Shown here in pieces: positions 2,728-31,176 of a DNA stretch of 32,000 bases (positions are counted from its first letter, which is position 1; every line of letters begins with the position of its first letter). Source of the DNA: Candidatus Saccharimonadota bacterium (GTDB lineage: Bacteria; Patescibacteriota; Gracilibacteria; UBA4473); assembly GCA_963677105.1 (NCBI GenBank), contig OY781871.1, positions 180,001-212,000 on the forward strand, read 5' to 3'. The notes beneath the pieces were generated by a model. The model was given only the letters and a program-made list of their open reading frames with translations, was not told where the DNA came from and did not search any database. Made by a program: the position numbers and the translations under genes.

Positions 2728-3023
2728 TTCATTCCTGGTAAACTTTTTCGTACAGAATGAACAAATGCAACGAGCTCTTTTTTTCGTTTCTCTGGAATCT
2801 CATTCCATCGCTCTCCCGTAATCGCTCCTTCTAAAGCATATAAAAAACAAGAACACATTCCCTGTTCCCATCCATTTTTTTCAAAAATTCGTAAAAATAT
2901 TTCTTCCGGTCCAAGTTGTTTTAACTGTTCTGGCATTTCGACGCCAACTTCAAGTAATCGCTGCACACTCTTTTCTCCAAGATTTGGAAGTTTTTTCAAT
3001 TCTAATCCTTTCTTATTGCTCAT
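2724..3023 (-). CDS. TfoX C-terminal (helix-hairpin-helix) domain protein
   Basis: LKKLPNLGEKSVQRLLEVGVEMPEQLKQLGPEEIFLRI...FLYALEGAITGERWNEIPEKRKKEL matches the stand-alone TfoX_C pattern. Lies between pdxS and pdxT. Confidence 0.7.
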   Translation of the reverse strand: MSNKKGLELKKLPNLGEKSVQRLLEVGVEMPEQLKQLGPEEIFLRIFEKNGWEQGMCSCFLYALEGAITGERWNEIPEKRKKELVAFVHSVRKSLPGMK

Positions 3024-3064
3024 TTATATTTTGTACTTTGATATTTGTTATTTGCGATTTAGAG
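3023..3064 (-). repeat. heptamer array filling the pdxS-tfoX_C spacer
   Basis: TTTATAT TTTGTAC TTTGATA TTTGTTA TTTGCGA TTTAGAG: six units running from the tfoX_C ATG to 2 nt before the pdxS stop. Confidence 0.85.
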
Positions 3065-3066
3065 CG

Positions 3067-3933
3067 TTAGCGATTCGCATATTTCACTGCCAAAGAATCT
3101 ATTTCCAATCCTGGCATCGCAGAACCAAGTCCCGCCGCAATTTCTGCTAATTTCTCAGAATCATCGTAATGAGCAACGGCAAGAACCATTGCTCGTGCCA
3201 TTTTTTTGGGATTTTCTGCTGAAAAAATTCCTGAACCAACAAATACTCCATCTGCACCTAATTGCATCATCATTGCGGCATCGGCTGGCGTAGCAACTCC
3301 TCCTGCAACAAATGTAACTACTGGAAGTCTTCCTAGCTCTGAAACCTTTTTAATCAGTTCTTCTGGTACACCATATTCTTCTGCTTTTGCTGAAAAATCC
3401 GAATTCGGTAATTCAGAAATTTCACGTTCAATCTGTCGCCAATGACGAACTGCCTCAACAACATTTCCAGTTCCTGCTTCTCCTTTGGTTCGAATCATTG
3501 CTACGCCTTCATTTACACGACGAAGCGCTTCTCCCAAATTCCGAGCGCCACACACGAAGGGTAACTTAAATGGGGTTTTATCAATATGAAATTCTTCATC
3601 CGCAGGAGTTAATACTTCAGATTCATCAATAAAATCTATATCAAGCGATTCCAAAATCTGTGCTTCAACAAAATGTCCTACTCGTACTTTTGCCATCACC
3701 GGAATTGAAACCGCGTTTTTAATAGCTGTAATCATATTTGGATCGCTCGCACGTGCCACTCCGCCATCTTTACGAATCAAAGAAGGAATTCGTTCCAATG
3801 CCATAACTGCAACCGCTCCTGCTTCTTCTGCAATCTTTGCTTGTTCTACATTCATTACGTCCATAATCACTCCAGATTTCATCATCTGGGCAAGACCTGA
3901 TTTTAACGCGAAAGTGTTTTTAGAAATATTCAT
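3067..3933 (-). CDS. pdxS: PLP synthase subunit PdxS
   Basis: [53 protein letters not shown] and the rest is collinear with PdxS/SNZ. Confidence 0.95.
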
Positions 3934-5886: not shown

Positions 5887-5919
5887 TTGTGCAAAACTTG
5901 TGAACAAATGGTGCACAAA
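5887..5919. promoter_or_regulatory. three direct 11-nt repeats at the rsmH promoter (candidate operator)
   Basis: TTGTGCAAAAC / TTGTGAACAAA / TGGTGCACAAA are contiguous with an 11-nt period. They lie just downstream of the predicted rsmH -10. Confidence 0.45.
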
Positions 5920-5922
5920 AAA

Positions 5923-6096: not shown

Positions 6097-6142
6097 TTTA
6101 TAATTTCAAGTTTGTATGTTGAAGTTTTAAGTAAAGTGAGTA
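6097..6142 (-). repeat. heptamer array, orphan copy in a divergent intergenic region
   Basis: Plus strand reads TTTATAA TTTCAAG TTTGTAT GTTGAAG TTTTAAG, then TAAAGTGAGTA. That tail is a decayed version of the CGGAGCGACTA box of the dgt copy. Confidence 0.7.
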
Positions 6143-7346: not shown

Positions 7347-7408
7347 AAACTGTAAGAGCGAGTAGATTATATGGATGAATTTTATCTGGTCAATATTTTT
7401 TTGAACTT

Positions 7409-8166: not shown

Positions 8167-8643
8167 TTATTTATTTTCCTCGTCTTGAGGCAAACTTTTT
8201 CGAAAAGAATCTAATACGGCATTTATAAATCCAGCTGATTTATCTTCTGCAAATAATTTCGCTAATTCTATATACTCATTAATAACTACCACTGGTGGAG
8301 TTTTGAGAAATTTCATCTCAGATATTCCTAACACTAATAATGCTTTATTGATCGGTGCAATCTTTTCCAACGGAAAGTCCGGAGCAAAAACACGAATAAT
8401 CACTTTTATTTTCCCTAAATTTTCAACCGCTGTGCCCACTAACTCTTCTGCAAATAAATCTTGTCGTTCTGTTTTTAATTCTATTCCATCTTCACCAACA
8501 ACAGATTTCATACGTGTTTCAACACAATTCAACACATGAAACAAACATTCTTTCCAGTCCGTCCCTTTTCCATTTTCTAAAAAGGAAAAAAGAGCCTCAA
8601 TTGCCCAGATTCTACTCTGACGACGAGCCTCGCTTTTTTTCAT
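8167..8643 (-). CDS. nusB: transcription antitermination factor NusB
   Basis: RRQSRIWAIEALFS... and INEYIELAKLFAEDKSAGFINAVLD are typical of NusB. Confidence 0.8.
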   Translation of the reverse strand: MKKSEARRQSRIWAIEALFSFLENGKGTDWKECLFHVLNCVETRMKSVVGEDGIELKTERQDLFAEELVGTAVENLGKIKVIIRVFAPDFPLEKIAPINKALLVLGISEMKFLKTPPVVVINEYIELAKLFAEDKSAGFINAVLDSFRKSLPQDEENK

Positions 8644-11360: not shown

Positions 11361-11416
11361 TTTTAAGTTTCAATCCTCAGTCTTAATCCTTGAACTTTGT
11401 TCTCTGTGTTTTGATG
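11361..11416. repeat. degenerate heptamer-phased T-rich tract
   Basis: TTTTAAG TTTCAAT CCTCAGT CTTAATC CTTGAAC TTTGTTC TCTGTGT TTTGATG. Weak copy, antisense relative to the flanking + genes. Confidence 0.4.
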
Positions 11417-11426
11417 CTTTTTCTTA

Positions 11427-11455
11427 TTGACACTTTTCTTGCAAACCGCGAAAAT
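11427..11455 (+). promoter_or_regulatory. predicted purA promoter
   Basis: TTGACA-N17-GAAAAT lies inside the longer 11390 ORF, which supports the ATG at 11489 as the start. Confidence 0.4.
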
Positions 11456-12905: not shown

Positions 12906-14327
12906 ATGGATAAAACCCAGGTATGGAATGCAGTTCTTGCTCGTATGGGCGAAAAGATTTCACGTATGGAATTTATAACTTGGTTCAAAAAAGTAGAACT
13001 TTCTCAAATATCGGGAGGTGCTGTTGAGCTGGTTTGTCCAACAGAGATGAATGCCAATTGGTTACAGTCAAAATACCATAGTATTATTTTAGCAAATATG
13101 CAGGCCGTGATGCCAGAAATTGATAAAATATTTTTTCGTGTTGATCTCTCTCTTGCCGATCAAGAAACCGACCATGAAGATCCAGCAATTTTTGCTGCAC
13201 CAACAAAGCCAAGAAAATTACCAAACAAACCAGAATCACGAATTGCTCCAGGACTAGATACTCGAATTACATTAGAAAAATTTTCTCTCGAAAATTTTAT
13301 CGTTGGTGACGAAAATCAATTTGCACATGCTGCGTGTCACGCAGTTATAAATGGTGCATGTGACCCAAAAACAAAACCACAATATAATCCTCTTTTCATA
13401 TTTGGAGGAGTTGGATTGGGAAAAACTCATATGCTTCAAGGAATCGCAAATGATATTCGAAAAAAAAATCCAGAAGTAGTGGTTCTTTATGTTACATCTG
13501 AACGGTTTATGAATGAAATCGTCCAAGCTATTAAAAATCGAAAAACGGATGAATTTAGAAAAAAATATCGACGTGTCGATGTTTTTCTTTTAGATGACGT
13601 ACAATTTTTTGAAGGAAAAGAAAAAACACAAGAAGAATTATTTAATACATTTAACGATTTATTTGAATTTGGAAAACAAATTGTTTTTGCGGCAGATCGA
13701 CCACCATCTGAATTGCTCGGAATTAGCGATCGACTTCGAAGTCGAATGGGTTGGGGGTTACTCGCAGATGTACAAATGCCAAATTTTGAAACACGTCTCG
13801 CAATTATTCAGGAAAAAATGCGCGAGAAACAAATGCTTCTTCCTCCTGATGTTCAGGAATTTGTTGCGACAAATATTCGTCACAATCTCCGAGAACTCGA
13901 AAATATTCTCAATCAAATTGTAGCGGAAATGGATTTACGAGGAATCTCTCCAACACCGCAAACTGTTGGAAAAATCTTCCGATCTATTAATCCCGAAAGA
14001 GAAATAGAAATTAAAGCAGACGGAACCTCTGCTCTTGCACGATGCACTGATGACATTATCACAATAATTTCTGATTATTTTCAGATTCCTGCAACAGAGA
14101 TTCTGGGAGTTTCACGAAAAAAAGAAATTGTATTCCCACGACAAATTTGCTGGCTCTTATGCAAAGACTTATTGAAAATGAGTTACGAAGCAATTGGAGA
14201 AGATTTTGGTGGAAAAAATCACACAACTATCATGCATGGAATACGAAAAATTCGAAACTTAGCGCGCACAGATAGTCAAACTGCACGTCATCTTCATGCG
14301 TTGAAAAAAGATTTGGGAGTAAAATAG
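12906..14327 (+). CDS. dnaA: chromosomal replication initiator DnaA
   Basis: GGVGLGKTHMLQ (Walker A), VFLLDDVQF, RELENIL, C-terminal DNA-binding domain (FGGKNHTTIMHGIRKI). Confidence 0.95.
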   Translation: MDKTQVWNAVLARMGEKISRMEFITWFKKVELSQISGGAVELVCPTEMNANWLQSKYHSIILANMQAVMPEIDKIFFRVDLSLADQETDHEDPAIFAAPTKPRKLPNKPESRIAPGLDTRITLEKFSLENFIVGDENQFAHAACHAVINGACDPKTKPQYNPLFIFGGVGLGKTHMLQGIANDIRKKNPEVVVLYVTSERFMNEIVQAIKNRKTDEFRKKYRRVDVFLLDDVQFFEGKEKTQEELFNTFNDLFEFGKQIVFAADRPPSELLGISDRLRSRMGWGLLADVQMPNFETRLAIIQEKMREKQMLLPPDVQEFVATNIRHNLRELENILNQIVAEMDLRGISPTPQTVGKIFRSINPEREIEIKADGTSALARCTDDIITIISDYFQIPATEILGVSRKKEIVFPRQICWLLCKDLLKMSYEAIGEDFGGKNHTTIMHGIRKIRNLARTDSQTARHLHALKKDLGVK

Positions 14328-14370
14328 TCGCTTCGCTCCAAAGTTCAAATTACAAAATACAAAGTGTAAA
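14325..14370 (+). repeat. stop-codon box plus heptamer array (dnaA 3' end)
   Basis: TAG TCGCTTCGCTCC, then CTCCAAA GTTCAAA TTACAAA ATACAAA GTGTAAA. This is the only copy with the A/C-rich strand on +, matching the + orientation of dnaA. Confidence 0.85.
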
Positions 14371-15902: not shown

Positions 15903-15948
15903 TTTAAAGTTTGTAGTTTGAAGATTGTAGTTTGGAGCGAAGCGACTA
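15903..15948 (-). repeat. stop-codon box plus heptamer array (mfd 3' end)
   Basis: Plus strand: TTTAAAG TTTGTAG TTTGAAG ATTGTAG TTTGGAG CGAAGCGA CTA. Gene sense: TAG TCGCTTCGCTCC AAACTACAATCTTCAAACTACAAACTTTAAA. Confidence 0.85.
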
Positions 15949-19235: not shown

Positions 19236-19272
19236 TAAATTAAAAAAGGTGCGGATCACGAGGGATCCGCAC
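19236..19272 (-). terminator. intrinsic terminator of the 19-codon sORF
   Basis: GTGCGGATC (19249-19257) pairs with GATCCGCAC (19264-19272): 9 perfect bp with a 6-nt loop. Minus-sense tail is CTTTTTTAATTT. Confidence 0.8.
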
Positions 19273-19301: not shown

Positions 19302-19361
19302 TTAACGATTACCAGCGAGTTCTTCTACATTCATGATTGCGATTGTTGTTATTTTTTTCAT
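19302..19361 (-). CDS. 19-aa small ORF, MKKITTIAIMNVEELAGNR
   Basis: Below the ORF-track cutoff. AAAGGAGGTG SD 6 nt before the ATG, the best SD in the window. Has its own promoter candidates and terminator. Confidence 0.45.
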   Translation of the reverse strand: MKKITTIAIMNVEELAGNR

Positions 19362-19409: not shown

Positions 19410-19559
19410 AAACCTGATTGCGATAGTAATGTCTGTGCTTCAAATTGGTCAAATTAGCCAATTTAAAATTACACAAACTTCAAAGAGCCCGTCTAATGTA
19501 CGTATAATGAAAGATATGTCAAACACGTACTTAATATCTAAAGTTTGGAAATAAATCTT

Positions 19560-19589
19560 TGGAAAATAAAAAACAGTTTCCTGTTTTTT
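19560..19589 (-). terminator. A/T-rich hairpin terminator of dnaN
   Basis: Minus sense: AAAAAACAG-GAAA-CTGTTTTTT (9 bp, GNRA loop) followed by ATTTTCC. Confidence 0.55.
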
Positions 19590-25703: not shown

Positions 25704-25738
25704 TTTGATCTTTGTACTTTGTTATTTGATATTTTAAT
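25704..25738 (-). repeat. heptamer array ending exactly at the stop codon of the 193-aa gene
   Basis: TTTGATC TTTGTAC TTTGTTA TTTGATA TTTTAAT, then TTA (the stop at 25739-25741). Confidence 0.85.
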
Positions 25739-26320
25739 TTAAAAGGATTTCACAAAATCCTCCGCAATATTATCTAACATATTTGATTCATATTCTGTAG
25801 TAGCGCGTAACCAAAACGCAGAAAGAATTAATCGAATCCCTTGTGTAAGAAGTTCTTTATTAGAAAAATCCTTGTGAAATGACGACAAATGAAGCGTGTT
25901 AGAATGATCATCCGCAATAAGAACTAAAGAACACCATTCTGTAATTCTTTTTCGAATCACATCATTCTGCACCTCTTGTAAAAACCCTAATCCAGCTACA
26001 TCTTCCAACTCAATCTGTGATTCAATCATCTCAGCTGCCGGTCGACAAACAAGCGAAACGAATGCCAATATCGTCAAACTTGGAATTTCTTGATCAATCA
26101 TCCATGCGACCAATTTCAATAATGATGGCTGTAAATACTTAATAATTTGAGCCAACTGTCTATCATGTCCTACTGATTTTTTTTCATCTTTTTTAACAGC
26201 TGCTAAACGTGCTTGCGCAGCAGAAATCCTTGCTATTAATTGTTCCGAGGTTTCTTCTGAACCTTCCGAAATATTTCCCATCAAGAGATCGTCGAGACCA
26301 CTGGCTTGTTCTGCTCCCAT
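25739..26320 (-). CDS. hypothetical protein downstream of rpmA
   Basis: 193-aa ORF with an ATG start. Reasonable coding look but no recognised motifs. Confidence 0.5.
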   Translation of the reverse strand: MGAEQASGLDDLLMGNISEGSEETSEQLIARISAAQARLAAVKKDEKKSVGHDRQLAQIIKYLQPSLLKLVAWMIDQEIPSLTILAFVSLVCRPAAEMIESQIELEDVAGLGFLQEVQNDVIRKRITEWCSLVLIADDHSNTLHLSSFHKDFSNKELLTQGIRLILSAFWLRATTEYESNMLDNIAEDFVKSF

Positions 26321-26687: not shown

Positions 26688-26715
26688 ATCTTAGGAATAA
26701 AATAAAACTTGTCAA
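26688..26715 (-). promoter_or_regulatory. predicted rpmA promoter
   Basis: Minus strand: TTGACA-N16-TAAGAT. Confidence 0.5.
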
Positions 26716-26760: not shown

Positions 26761-26790
26761 TTTGAAGTTTGTACTTTGCTGTTTAATCTA
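26761..26790 (-). repeat. heptamer array abutting the murA stop codon
   Basis: TTTGAAG TTTGTAC TTTGCTG TTTAAT, then CTA (TAG stop). Confidence 0.8.
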
Positions 26791-28299
26791 CGCTTCAATT
26801 CTCTTCACAACTGCACCGAGCGATTCAAGTGTTTCTGGAAATTTTTCATATCCACGATCAATATATTGAACATTTGAAATACGAGTTTTCCCTTCGGCCG
26901 CTAATCCCGCTAAAACCATAGCTGCACCAGCTCTCAAGTCCCAACTCTGAACACTCGCTCCACGAAGTGGAGTTTTCCCAAAAACACGCGCCTGATGAGG
27001 ATTCATTTGTCGAACTTTTGCACCCATTTTTTCCAATTCTTGTAAATACGTAAGACGGTTTTCAAAAAGTGTTTCAAAAATCATTGATTCTCCCTCACAT
27101 TGAGTTAAAAGAACACCAAATGGTGATTGTAAATCTGTAGAAAATCCTGGGAAAATTGCTGTTTGCAATTTTGGTATCGCAACGAGTTTCTTCGGTGTTA
27201 CTACTCGCAACGCATTGTCAAGGAGTTTAAATTGTCCTCCAATGCGCTGAAATGCGCCGTAGAAACTTAATAATTCCCGATGACTTACGTTTTTTATGAG
27301 TAAATCTCCTCCAGCAATCGTAGTAGCAATGGCATATGTTCCAGCTAATAATCCGTCTGGCGGAATAACAAATTCTCCTCCATGTAAGTGAATTCCTCCA
27401 TGAATAGACAAACTGTGTGTAGCGACTCCTGTAATCTTTGCTCCCATTTGTTGCAACATACGAACCGTTGCCACGACATGGATTTCTGCTGCTGTAAAAA
27501 ATAATTCTGCAGTGTCATCACATCCTGCACAAAATAAGGCCAAATTTTCAGTGGCTGTAACAGAAGCTTCTGAAAAAAGAACTGCATTATTTTCATATTT
27601 AGGTCGAGCAAAACGAACTGTAATTTGTTCAGGTGTTTCATCTACAAACGCTCCTAATGTTCGAAATGCATCTAAGTGAGAAGCATTTGATCGTGCACCA
27701 ATTACACATCCTCCTGGCAGAGGAATTGTGACTTCATGAAAACGTGCCAACAAGGGGCCCAACATCAAAATTGTCGCTCTCATTTTTCGTGCCTTACGAC
27801 AATTCATTAGTTTTTCTGGAGATAAATTTTTTGCAGTAACAGAAACTGTTTTTGCTTCAAAATCACGAGACACTTCTACTCCAATATATTCAAAAATTTC
27901 TAATAACGTTGCTACATCTGAAATATCTGGAACATTTCGAAATAAACATTCGTCTTCCGTCAAAAGTGCTGCACATAACATTGGAAGCGTAGCATTTTTC
28001 GCTCCAGGAATAATCAATTCTCCGTGTAATTCATTTCCCCCTTCTACGTCAAAATATGGATTTTTTTTGGGAATATGTGGACGATCATTCGGACAAGAAA
28101 ATTGAATTAACTTATCTCCCCCTAATTCAAATAATTTAATTATTACTTCTGAACTATTAGGCGTTGATATTCCAGAAATCCAATTATGAACTGATTGTCT
28201 TTGCACTCCTAAATAATCTGCCAATCCTGATGGTGTCCAACGCTCTTGTTCCATCCATTCTCGTAAATCAGCATTAAACGAAATCTTCATTTCAGACAA
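26788..28299 (-). CDS. murA: UDP-N-acetylglucosamine 1-carboxyvinyltransferase with N-terminal XRE-type HTH extension
   Basis: aa 82-503 are a full MurA (LHGELIIPGAKNATLPMLCAALL, PGGCVIGARS with the catalytic Cys). aa 8-60 look like HTH_3 (WTPSGLADYLGVQRQSVHNWISG). TTG start with AAGGTGAT SD. Confidence 0.88.
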   Translation of the reverse strand: MSEMKISFNADLREWMEQERWTPSGLADYLGVQRQSVHNWISGISTPNSSEVIIKLFELGGDKLIQFSCPNDRPHIPKKNPYFDVEGGNELHGELIIPGAKNATLPMLCAALLTEDECLFRNVPDISDVATLLEIFEYIGVEVSRDFEAKTVSVTAKNLSPEKLMNCRKARKMRATILMLGPLLARFHEVTIPLPGGCVIGARSNASHLDAFRTLGAFVDETPEQITVRFARPKYENNAVLFSEASVTATENLALFCAGCDDTAELFFTAAEIHVVATVRMLQQMGAKITGVATHSLSIHGGIHLHGGEFVIPPDGLLAGTYAIATTIAGGDLLIKNVSHRELLSFYGAFQRIGGQFKLLDNALRVVTPKKLVAIPKLQTAIFPGFSTDLQSPFGVLLTQCEGESMIFETLFENRLTYLQELEKMGAKVRQMNPHQARVFGKTPLRGASVQSWDLRAGAAMVLAGLAAEGKTRISNVQYIDRGYEKFPETLESLGAVVKRIEA

Positions 28300-28323: not shown

Positions 28324-28351
28324 ATACTAGAAAGTTTTACTTAAGTGTCAA
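28324..28351 (-). promoter_or_regulatory. predicted murA promoter
   Basis: Minus strand: TTGACA-N16-TAGTAT. Confidence 0.55.
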
Positions 28352-28453: not shown

Positions 28454-28499
28454 TTTGTTATTTGATATTTGTACTTTGAAGTTTTAAGCGGAGCGACTA
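28454..28499 (-). repeat. stop-codon box plus heptamer array (dgt 3' end)
   Basis: TTTGTTA TTTGATA TTTGTAC TTTGAAG TTTTAAG CGGAGCGA CTA. Gene sense: TAG TCGCTCCGCTT AAAACTTCAAAGTACAAATATCAAATAACAAA. Confidence 0.85.
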
Positions 28500-29564: not shown

Positions 29565-29586
29565 TTTCAAGACTTATTATGTAAAA

Positions 29587-29625
29587 TTTAGAGTTTGTAG
29601 ATTGAAGATTGCTTTCTTGCGCTCC
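29587..29625 (-). repeat. heptamer array, copy directly upstream of the dgt start
   Basis: TTTAGAG TTTGTAG ATTGAAG ATTGCTT TCTTGCGCTCC. Closest to the mfd copy (shared CAATCTTCAA.CTACAAACT.TAAATT). Confidence 0.7.
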
Positions 29626-29628
29626 CCA

Positions 29629-29808
29629 ATGATGATGGTACACTGTTCAGTGAAAATGCGCGAAAAAAATTTCGGATTCGAACTCAAACAACGCGAACAC
29701 GTTTCTTTGGAAGAATTGCGTGATATATTTTTGCAAGAAAGCATTGCCTCGTTTCCCGACAAAAGCCTTTCTACATCAATGAAATTTTGCCAAACAATTG
29801 ATGAATAA
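29629..29808 (+). CDS. possible 59-aa hypothetical protein
   Basis: Its end overlaps the ATG at 29801 of the next gene by 8 nt. No SD and no homology recognised. A competing antisense ORF is less convincing. Confidence 0.25.
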   Translation: MMMVHCSVKMREKNFGFELKQREHVSLEELRDIFLQESIASFPDKSLSTSMKFCQTIDE

Positions 29809-30418
29809 TTCCAGCCTTCCTCTTCCGGATGGTTTCGCTCCTCCGACATGGTGGGAAAAGATTTTCCCTGCGTGGATGATTGATTTTTTAGTCTTTACAA
29901 AAGAGTTTGTAGACAAACATATTTTGTGGTTTGTGTTACTGGGAATCATAATTTTATTGATAAAATTTTGGTACGATGCCGAACGCAGAAAATTTCTTCA
30001 AATCAAAAAACTTTGGACTTTTACGCTCTTTTTCTTATCGAAAAGATTAATGATGATTCCTCTTATTATAACCTTTTCTCGAAGAACCAAGAAATTGTCG
30101 AACAAAAAAATTGAACAGATTTTGTCTCTCAGAGACGAGTGTCGATCTGTTTCATTAAAAAATGATCCTCAAGAACGACTGAAACGAGAAGAAAAAATAT
30201 CAAAAGCTCTTTTTGAATTTTTTATCGATTTAGAAAGCAATGGAACACTTTCTTCTAATGCTGCTCTTACGCAAATTGCAAAAGATCTCGAATTTATTGA
30301 TAAAAAACTTGTTGAGTTGCAACTTGCCTACAACCACGAAGCACGAAAATGGAATCTTCGTAGAAATCTTGCAAAAAAAATATTAGGGCTTCCTTCTCTC
30401 ACTTTATTTAAAGGATGA
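29801..30418 (+). CDS. hypothetical membrane protein (weakly LemA-like C-terminus)
   Basis: TM HILWFVLLGIIILLI plus a second hydrophobic segment. The C-terminal LQLAYNHEARKWNLRR..LGLP loosely recalls the LemA YN..V..YN motif. Confidence 0.5.
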   Translation: MNNSSLPLPDGFAPPTWWEKIFPAWMIDFLVFTKEFVDKHILWFVLLGIIILLIKFWYDAERRKFLQIKKLWTFTLFFLSKRLMMIPLIITFSRRTKKLSNKKIEQILSLRDECRSVSLKNDPQERLKREEKISKALFEFFIDLESNGTLSSNAALTQIAKDLEFIDKKLVELQLAYNHEARKWNLRRNLAKKILGLPSLTLFKG

Positions 30419-31176
30419 TTTGGAATGCCAATCCCATTGCATTTTCTGTTTTAAACATAGATATACGTTGGTATGGACTTGTCTATGCTCTTGGATTTTT
30501 TTTCTGTGATTGGTTTGGTTGGAAACACATTTCAAAACTAAACATTGTAAATAAAAAACAGTGGGAAAATTGTATTTTAGGAACGTTTATCATCGGTGTA
30601 ATTGGAGGAAGAATTGGGGAATTTATTTTCTATTCTCCGAGTACATTTGTAACAGAACCGCTAGAAATTCTAAAAATCTGGAATGGTGGAATGTCTATTC
30701 ATGGCGGAGTTATTGCATCAATTCTTTGGATTTTATTTTGGAGTAAAAAACATAAACTTTCCCCTCTTGTATTCACGGATGCAATTGTGTTGCCATTGGC
30801 GATTGTTTTAATTTTCGGACGCTTGGCAAATTGGGCCAATGGTGAACTCTGGGGAAGACCAACTGGAACAGATTGGGGCGTAATTTTTCCACACGTTGAT
30901 TCTGTTTTGCGTCATCCGAGCCAGCTTTATGAATCCGGAAAAAATCTACTACTTTCTGGAATTCTTCTGGCAATAAGTCGTCTTTCACTCTGTCAAAAGG
31001 AAGGAATTCAAACCGTCGTGTTTTTTGCAGGATACGGAATATTACGATTTATTATTGAGTTTTATCGCGAACCAACAACGTGGCTTGGAAGTATCACAAC
31101 AGGACAGGCTTTGTGTGCAGGAATGGTTTTGTTCTCCATTATTTTGGCGTGGTCTAAAAACTTTTGGAAAAAATGA
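30415..31176 (+). CDS. lgt: prolipoprotein diacylglyceryl transferase
   Basis: IRWYGLVYALGF, MSIHGG, GRLANWANGELWGRPT, HPSQLYES. ATGA overlaps on both sides. Confidence 0.9.
   Translation: MIWNANPIAFSVLNIDIRWYGLVYALGFFFCDWFGWKHISKLNIVNKKQWENCILGTFIIGVIGGRIGEFIFYSPSTFVTEPLEILKIWNGGMSIHGGVIASILWILFWSKKHKLSPLVFTDAIVLPLAIVLIFGRLANWANGELWGRPTGTDWGVIFPHVDSVLRHPSQLYESGKNLLLSGILLAISRLSLCQKEGIQTVVFFAGYGILRFIIEFYREPTTWLGSITTGQALCAGMVLFSIILAWSKNFWKK

Follow-up and report, generated by a model that had tools for sequence, protein, structure and literature searches.

Heptamer arrays of fixed CAAA phase abut stop codons in the sense orientation in a Patescibacteriota genome and may act at mRNA 3′ ends

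Introduction

In this study, we describe a family of phased heptamer arrays that follow the stop codons of genes in a 32,000-nucleotide stretch of Candidatus Saccharimonadota bacterium (GTDB lineage Bacteria; Patescibacteriota; Gracilibacteria; UBA4473; assembly GCA_963677105.1, contig OY781871.1, positions 180,001 to 212,000 of the forward strand), hereafter the window, among them the array at 28454-28499 after dgt. The closest precedent is the pair of heptamer families known from Xanthomonas (GGGAATC) and Nostoc (GGGGAYT), in which the units are arranged in tandem with about four units preferred (Rehm et al., 2015, PMC4692102). Those repeats are 89%–93% intergenic and mostly located between co-oriented open reading frames (ORFs), at a mean distance of 28 nt from the upstream and 160 nt from the downstream ORF, with a strong bias to positions within 50 nt of a stop codon or overlapping it (PMC4692102). 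Like the arrays of the window they are contiguous, dispersed, intergenic, close to stop codons and lineage-specific. The Xanthomonas and Nostoc units, however, are G-rich, near-identical, capable of forming G-quadruplexes and found on either strand, whereas the window arrays are G-poor on the sense strand and cannot form quadruplexes; the explanation proposed for the Xanthomonas and Nostoc repeats therefore cannot be general. New to the present family are an A/C-rich, non-quadruplex motif, heterogeneous units (all differ, with only the TTTG/CAAA phase kept) and a strictly sense orientation with exact abutment of the stop codon, in some copies together with a non-repeat anchor.

Other described systems share part of this organization. 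The TAACTGA repeats of marine Beggiatoaceae, some Cyanobacteria and Bacteroidetes occur as ~170 dispersed sets in intergenic DNA, each with 2-6 heptamers in direct succession. They stand immediately before start codons, and the largest class ends 1 nt ahead of the start; RNA-level protein binding (S1, Csp, CsrA) has been proposed for them (MacGregor, 2015, PMC4679880). Their orientation is likewise tied to the neighboring gene and their phyletic distribution is patchy, but their units are identical and start-tied whereas those of the window are heterogeneous and stop-tied. The ribbon-helix-helix (RHH) protein omega/ParB of plasmid pSM19035 binds contiguous 7-bp heptads, needs at least four without gaps and has native sites of ~7-10 (PMC9499535). 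These heptads are double-stranded DNA (dsDNA) operators or centromeres in promoter regions, direct or inverted, with a different consensus and no relation to stop codons; the window arrays have the required four or more contiguous repeats but follow stops instead of occupying promoter or centromere positions. The cyanobacterial short tandemly repeated repetitive (STRR) heptanucleotides (Mrazek, 2007; Calothrix STRR) are also dispersed, tandem and non-coding, yet near-perfect and of the slippage type, in contrast to the all-distinct units of 7/7 window arrays. A first-pass annotation of the window, made by a model from the sequence alone, knew of no described element with 7-nt phasing, a statement that the Xanthomonas/Nostoc, Beggiatoaceae and omega/ParB heptamers overturn. 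Lastly, the arrays resemble Rho-utilization (Rut) sites in being untranslated, unstructured RNA with more C than G after a stop codon, such as hexamer subunits contact in short segments. Mapped Rut sites are U/C-rich and have no strict periodicity, whereas the arrays are 7-nt periodic and 50% A.

Results

Phased heptamer arrays and their unit

The window has ~35% GC and uses the standard genetic code, and the closest counterparts of its DnaA and MurA carry the label Candidatus Gracilibacteria or Peribacteria. Ten intergenic loci with phased arrays had been listed by the first-pass annotation. Seven of them are strong arrays, each with 4-6 contiguous 7-nt units in exact register, while 6097-6142, 11361-11416 and 29587-29625 proved degenerate or off the positional rule. 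The exact register also stands, and the unit, given there as TTTGNAN, is better written TTTG-W-(A/T)-N, or NNNCAAA on the mRNA strand of the adjoining gene. The strong arrays are:

1487-1521, − strand: array of the SNase-family nuclease gene (units 1487-1521); TAA stop at 1517-1519 within the first unit; convergent junction with a 287-aa gene
3024-3069, − strand: array of pdxS (units 3023-3064), occupying all of the spacer between the TAA stop (3067-3069) and the ATG (3021-3023) of a TfoX_C-domain gene
14325-14370, + strand: array of dnaA (units 14336-14370, opposite strand to the others); TAG, anchor and 5 units; convergent junction with arcC
15903-15948, − strand: array of mfd (units 15903-15937); TAG, anchor TCGCTTCGC and 5 units
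25704-25741, − strand: array of the 193-aa gene (units 25704-25738); TAA, then 5 units directly
26761-26790, − strand: array of murA (units 26761-26788); TAG, then 4 units directly, no anchor
28454-28499, − strand: array of dgt (units 28454-28488); on the mRNA strand TAG, anchor TCGCTCCGC, then TTAAAAC TTCAAAG TACAAAT ATCAAAT AACAAAG
28487-28499, − strand: stop and anchor of dgt; TAG at 28497-28499, anchor GTCGCTCCGCT at 28487-28497

Arrays of this kind are far more frequent than the composition of the window predicts. Three or more consecutive TTTGNNN units occur 5 times against 0.03-0.07 expected from simulations with Markov models of order 1, 3 and 5 (maximum in any simulation, 1), and four or more consecutive TTT[GAT]NNN units 6 times against 0.16-0.31 expected from the same orders; a relaxed array pattern has 8 matches against ~1.9 expected. 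TTTG phased at 5, 6 or 8-11 nt has no match in the window. The same period emerged from a motif-free lag-autocorrelation scan of the window (threshold of at least 20/28 matches at a given lag), in which lag 7 returned five self-similar segments, every one of them an array, lag 11 returned one segment, and lags 4-6, 8-10 and 12 returned none.

Conservation is concentrated in part of the unit. Across the five lag-7 segments, the match rates of phases 1-7 are 0.90, 1.0, 1.0, 0.71, 0.24, 0.67 and 0.48, and unevenness of that size was reached in 0/20,000 permutations; T1-T3 are invariant and position 5 is random across array units. Overall, T1-T3 together with G4 make up the fixed part of the unit, and its last three positions are free to vary. 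The 35 units represent 22 different heptamers, and all units are distinct within each of the seven strong arrays. For comparison we used a background set of TTTG-heptamer arrays from unrelated genomes, found with the pattern TTTGWWNTTTGWWNTTTGWWNTTTG in genome and viral contigs (n = 175 among the matches listed). The listed matches are unrelated perfect tandem repeats from many phyla, with a mean of 0.49 distinct units per unit, and just 8% of the 175 are all-distinct. Because of the phase-specific conservation and the all-distinct units, the strong arrays are phased motif arrays and not ordinary slippage microsatellites. In searches of Rfam 15 at gathering thresholds and at E ≤ 1, only tRNA-Gly reached threshold and no E ≤ 1 match overlapped any array.

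Abutment of stop codons in the sense orientation

Genes were mapped from ORFs, Pfam matches and synteny with relatives. On this map, each of the seven strong arrays reads NNNCAAA in the sense of an adjoining gene and starts at an offset of −5 to +8 nt relative to the stop codon of that gene; the seven genes concerned are those that the first-pass annotation had named (SNase, pdxS, dnaA, mfd, the 193-aa gene, murA and dgt). The +8 offsets of dnaA, mfd and dgt become 0 once a 9-nt anchor is counted. When distance and orientation relative to the stop codon were tabulated, as had been proposed at first pass, the joint probability of abutment and orientation was ~4e-11 under random placement in the same gaps; orientation alone (7/7) has a probability of 0.008. 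Among the 175 listed background arrays, by comparison, only 7% adjoin a stop with CAAA in the sense of the gene, and the two orientations at stops number 12 and 15.

Three of the arrays lie at convergent junctions (SNase/287-aa, dnaA/arcC and 193-aa/CNNM), and all three convergent spacers of at least 40 nt in the window carry one, that of the 193-aa gene occupying most of its 58-nt spacer with the CNNM gene. The dnaA array is the sole copy after a + strand gene and is flipped, with + oriented copies on both sides, so orientation follows transcription, as the first-pass annotation had concluded, and not replication. An orientation set by replication was rejected for this reason and because the stop abutment tracks the gene. 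We also rejected a Bacteroidetes-type promoter (TTTG / TAnnTTTG) owing to misfitting spacing and the wrong orientation. As to stop codon usage, the 32 ORF ends of the window have TAA 17, TAG 10 and TGA 5 times; of the five TGA stops, four overlap the next start by 4 nt (ATGA), and the TGA of pdxT is followed by a 44-nt gap.

Anchor and descent among copies

An 11-nt anchor, GTCGCTYCGCT, stands directly after TAG in the dnaA, mfd and dgt copies. It occurs nowhere else in the window, and these three occurrences compare with an expectation of 0.28. The first 18 nt, TAGTCGCTTCGCTCCAAA, are identical in the dnaA and mfd copies, and an anchor-like sequence overlaps the final codons of pdxS. The unit types GTTA, GATA and GTAC are common to the dgt, 193-aa and pdxS arrays, where their order is permuted. 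Since the anchor is shared and recurring unit types are permuted, the copies appear to have derived from one another and not independently; these sequence relationships show a family related by descent and, by all appearances, later rearranged. No inverted termini, hairpins or conserved flanks were seen at the arrays in an alignment of the ten loci, and no consistent target-site duplication on inspection. A miniature inverted-repeat transposable element (MITE), a repetitive extragenic palindromic (REP) element or an insertion sequence (IS)-derived element was thus rejected (no terminal inverted repeats, no palindromic stem, no target-site duplication), and the likeliest route of spread would be copy-paste or gene conversion followed by unit shuffling.

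In the three anchor copies, reading through TAG gives in-frame tails of 12-13 codons that look alike (SLRSK.Q...). We rejected these as conserved read-through products: copies with the same DNA phase are bound to give similar tails, and an AT-rich reading frame can be expected to meet a stop after ~13 codons.

Terminators, promoters and RNA properties

Of the genes in the window, 20 are followed by a gap of at least 40 nt; seven of these have an array, seven a hairpin with a T-run and none both. Hairpins thus follow 0/7 array genes and 7/13 others (p = 0.022), and the mutual exclusion of arrays and hairpins, noticed at first pass, is supported, although the support is modest. The hairpins with T-runs are:

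After tRNA-Gly, the LPXTG gene, arcC, dnaN, the 1120-aa gene and the L27 gene: hairpin with T-run
After the first gene of the window: weak hairpin with T-run

An intrinsic terminator (GC-rich stem-loop and U-run) was rejected as the nature of the arrays, as no hairpin with T-run was found within or beside any of the seven; by eye, there are only weak AT-rich stems after the SNase and dnaA arrays. Three arrays are separated from the next gene by a good sigma-70-like promoter:

28324-28351, − strand: TTGACA-16-TAGTAT, between the dgt array and murA
26688-26715, − strand: TTGACA-16-TAAGAT, between the murA array and the L27 gene
15844-15871, − strand: TTGACT-16-AATACT, between the mfd array and a 134-aa gene

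Given these promoters, the array stands where a terminator would stand, ahead of the next transcription unit. On the sense strand the seven arrays contain A 50%, C 20.4%, U 23% and G 6.7%, in agreement with the earlier description of them as A/C-rich and G-poor. Compared with dinucleotide shuffles, the sense RNA is less stably folded in 5/7 regions (z +0.9 to +2.1), and the remaining two z-scores are near zero (dnaA −0.40, pdxS −0.07). Two characteristics of Rut sites, a G-poor composition with more C than G and little secondary structure, are therefore present in the arrays. The phased C is preceded mostly by A or T, and about half of the pairs are therefore AC and not YC.

Comparison with relatives

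Relatives were found through DnaA and MurA similarity. Their loci, with protein identity and length covered, are as follows:

L123: DnaA 92%, 11.6 kb; no array, and a classic hairpin after dnaA where the window has its array
L244: DnaA 88%, 21 kb; two arrays, after rnc and after dnaN, both stop-abutting with CAAA in the sense strand
L261: MurA 88%, 14 kb; none by scan, and by eye a diverged orthologue of the dnaN array
L259: MurA 87%, 15 kb; no array
L262: MurA 86%, 17 kb; no array
L253 and L256-258: DnaA 75%–85%, 2.5-17 kb each; no array
L001 and L002: DnaA 73%, ~21 kb each; no array

The two genes with arrays in L244, rnc and dnaN, are without arrays in the window. After dnaN, there are GC-rich hairpins in L001 and L256, a short hairpin in the window and an array in L244 and L261. 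In the relatives, the dgt-murA-L27 spacers measure 28-66 nt and have no terminator, and the homologues of the CNNM and 193-aa genes overlap by 4-8 nt in L001 and L244 and by 26 nt in L262 and are adjacent in L257 and L258; these short spacers and overlapping genes indicate that the arrays in the window are recent additions. Taken together, the comparison points to an array family that is young, lineage-restricted, fast in turnover and prone to swap positions with hairpin terminators. An origin-proximal centromere was rejected, as relatives have no arrays in the same oriC-proximal region.

The window itself has two possible array relics, read in the − strand sense. After the rnc stop (7380-7408) stands AAGTTCAAA, with the tRNA-Gly promoter directly behind it, possibly the relic of a single unit, and 3′ of the dnaN hairpin (19540-19575) stands TCCAAAG ATTTATT TCCAAAC. 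L244 has full arrays behind both genes.

Searches beyond the window

A profile search in other genomes had been suggested at first pass. An nhmmer profile of the seven copies, run against all 264 fetched loci, returned no further members beyond simple repeats. The anchor-plus-array pattern had no match in viral contigs, and in metagenomes it matched one orthologous locus in six samples, in the isoleucyl-tRNA synthetase (IleRS) coding region of Candidatus Nealsonbacteria. One such contig also has an array in the methionyl-tRNA synthetase (MetRS) gene, like that of IleRS an essential gene:

626-675 and 10238-10272 of L247 (Candidatus Nealsonbacteria, JGI Ga0210017_1000033): TTGAGAT x7.3 in MetRS; TTTGGAA x4.6 in IleRS

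Both arrays have CAAA on the sense strand. They were rejected as family members, being near-perfect repeats in coding DNA and not a 3′ element, and we treat them as evidence of TTTG-type heptamer slippage in genomes of the candidate phyla radiation (CPR). The MetRS array encodes a hypervariable loop, LKSQIPNLKS; related MetRS proteins have K-T/S-Q-x-x-N-L-K peptides of varying length at the same place. The same contig contains an intergenic 59-bp unit repeated 3.2 times at 97% identity (8444-8629).

Weak loci and other features of the window

The remaining three loci of the ten are weak and may be decayed copies or chance occurrences:

6097-6142, strand not assigned: degenerate copy, anchor-like at one end, in the promoter region between the divergent rsmH and DedA-like genes; no stop codon there
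11361-11416, strand not assigned: degenerate array after the 211-aa + strand gene, with TTTG on the sense strand of the gene, the reverse of the rule; just upstream of the purA promoter (TTGACA at 11427)
29587-29625, − strand: array in the spacer between the divergent dgt and LemA-like genes, 17-55 nt before the start codon of dgt, with CAAA in the dgt sense

The last of these is within a 90-aa ORF (29577-29849, − strand) and not at a real stop codon. That ORF is probably no gene: it has no Pfam match and overlaps the LemA-like gene. At its position relatives have a divergent dgt/LemA-like spacer of 175-237 nt, and L261 has only a called ORF of 52 aa.

Several other features were recorded in the course of mapping. 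The ~480-nt spacer between dnaN and mfd holds a 19-codon small ORF (MKKITTIAIMNVEELAGNR, 19302-19361, − strand) with a GGAGG Shine-Dalgarno sequence and a strong hairpin terminator (19249-19272); relatives have ~155-230 nt there, without the insert. Three GTG-containing boxes at 11-bp phase (GTGCAAAACTT, GTGAACAAATG and GTGCACAAAAA; 5889-5920) lie 23-55 nt upstream of the rsmH start and resemble an MraZ-type operator; the 290-nt divergent spacer around them contains no mraZ ORF. The MurA of the window (26788-28290, − strand) has 500 aa, including an N-terminal extension of ~80 aa that resembles an HTH_3/XRE domain. The 500-aa form is kept in the closest relatives, and more distant ones have the usual 423-425 aa. 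Behind the end of lgt comes an unmapped ORF starting at 31164.

Discussion

The reading that we tentatively prefer, with less than even confidence, is that the arrays may be hairpin-less 3′ RNA pads for factor-dependent, Rho-like termination or insulation, distributed by a young dispersed repeat family. The element would measure ~35-46 nt on the mRNA and consist of the stop codon, an optional anchor (UCGCUYCGC) and 4-6 phased NNNCAAA units. Release of the ribosome at the stop codon would expose a naked A/C-rich tract with one CAAA per 7 nt, onto which an oligomeric factor that binds single-stranded RNA could load. Hexameric Rho is the obvious candidate, for which 4-6 units and the anchor would offer about six sites. 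Once loaded, the factor would terminate or attenuate transcription ahead of the next promoter or the convergent gene. At the three convergent junctions only a 3′ role makes sense. In E. coli, Rho subunits bind 5 nt each with a preference for A and C and with linkers of 4-5 nt (PMC12360218). A Rho-loading tract was among the roles proposed at first pass, and position, lack of structure and the excess of C over G agree with it, while the A-rich and not pyrimidine-rich sequence is atypical for mapped Rut sites. A platform for a protein that reads the repeat was another, with which the phase-specific conservation is in keeping. We found no literature on Rho in CPR bacteria.

Several observations weigh against the proposed termination pad. 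The period of 7 nt departs from the ~9-10 nt per subunit of E. coli Rho, and pyrimidines make up 43% of the arrays against 50% A, so that the pyrimidine-rich (YC) character of Rut sites is missing. The pdxS array reaches the next start codon, leaving no room to terminate, and is thus an exception to the terminator position, and the three weak copies (6097, 11361 and 29587) are away from stop codons. The family is nearly absent from relatives with 86%–92% protein identity, which fits selfish expansion as well as function. When the orthologous dnaN arrays of L244 and L261 are compared by eye, they differ more from each other than do the neighboring promoter and leader of mfd. Finally, relatives manage without a terminator in dgt-murA-L27; therefore the arrays are not obviously needed.

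It is possible, if somewhat doubtful, that the arrays are instead a selfish or neutral dispersed repeat of minisatellite-like character that spread recently, through a duplicative or targeted mechanism, and survived past stop codons where it is harmless, chiefly between convergent genes, with slippage or unequal exchange shuffling the units. The extremely patchy distribution (0-2 arrays in relatives vs 7-10 in the 32-kb window), the relatedness of the copies by descent through the common anchor and unit types, and the rapid change of orthologous arrays would all be expected of such a repeat, and the presence of an array in every convergent spacer of at least 40 nt is a classic pattern of insertion tolerance. 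In a Nealsonbacteria genome, hypervariable coding loops contain similar TTTG-type heptamer arrays. Among the long simple-sequence repeats of bacteria, heptamers are the class most in excess according to Mrazek (2007), as cited in PMC4679880. Neutral decay, however, should strike all seven positions equally, whereas T1-T3 are invariant and position 5 is random. A filter for harmless sites would explain the intergenic location but not the abutment of stops in the sense orientation within 1 nt in 7/7 cases (~4e-11). The lack of terminal inverted repeats, hairpins and target-site duplication means that no known transposition mechanism fits, and an insertion mechanism that targets stop codons would itself be new. 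If the motif is read as dsDNA and not as RNA, the arrays could be sites for a small dimeric protein, e.g., of the RHH type, acting as roadblock, insulator or nucleoid/partition organizer near the origin. The number of units (4-6) would suffice for a protein such as omega/ParB of pSM19035, which needs at least four contiguous heptads (PMC9499535), conservation at 4/7 positions resembles a binding site, and the window holds dnaA and dnaN and is probably near the origin. Yet we regard this role as decidedly unlikely, because a strict tie to the stop and strand of one gene is unexpected for operators or centromeres: omega heptads are direct or inverted and in promoter regions, whereas the arrays are all direct and after stops. 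Moreover, the origin-proximal regions of relatives are without arrays, and no cognate protein was identified.

Two further alternatives look to the neighboring gene. A translational element for the downstream gene, i.e., an unstructured A/C-rich standby or S1-binding site allowing re-initiation without a Shine-Dalgarno sequence, would account for the pdxS array, which ends exactly at the ATG of the TfoX_C gene, itself without Shine-Dalgarno, and for the sense orientation of the weak copy upstream of dgt; the TAACTGA arrays of Beggiatoaceae, for which a role of this kind has been proposed, also lie within a few nt of start codons. For the window arrays such a role, which the first-pass annotation had also put forward as a translation enhancer, is very unlikely in view of the 3/7 arrays at convergent junctions, where there is no downstream gene, and of the dgt, murA and mfd arrays, which are separated from the next start by a promoter and by 79-155 nt or more overall. 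In addition, the arrays are anchored to the upstream stop and not to the downstream start, and Shine-Dalgarno sequences are used elsewhere in the window. Highly improbable, in our judgment, is a block to antisense or convergent transcription, in which the opposite reading (UUUGNNN)n, U-rich and TTNTTT-like, could pause or terminate an incoming RNA polymerase. TTNTTT has a role in NusG-dependent pausing in Bacillus subtilis. The array in each of the three convergent spacers would suit a block of this kind, and the 287-aa and CNNM genes on the + strand have no hairpin with T-run by scan and, by eye, only weak AT-rich or 4-bp stems before the U-rich reading of the array of their neighbor. Nevertheless, 4/7 arrays lie between genes of the same direction, where antisense polymerases would not be expected to arrive, and the anchor and the exact stop abutment would be left unexplained.

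Returning to the termination pad, a bolder version can be formulated, which we consider unlikely as a whole. In it, the arrays would be a new hairpin-independent 3′-end signal, CAAA every 7 nt in about six registers, read by a divergent Rho or by an oligomeric RNA-binding terminator of CPR bacteria and spread by stop-codon targeting, and would define, with the Xanthomonas and Nostoc arrays, a general and unrecognized class of gene-end heptamer signals.

To our knowledge, transcription termination and 3′-end formation in CPR/Patescibacteria are essentially unstudied. If the arrays are functional, they would provide a sequence-defined hairpin-less terminator or insulator and a rare means of learning which sequence register a terminator factor reads. 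If they are merely selfish, their exact insertion at stop codons in the sense orientation implies a targeting mechanism not known so far. For annotation purposes, an array marks the true end of a gene in this lineage. The family is also relevant to an old puzzle, the dominance of heptamers among long bacterial simple repeats, several families of which lie beside stop codons.

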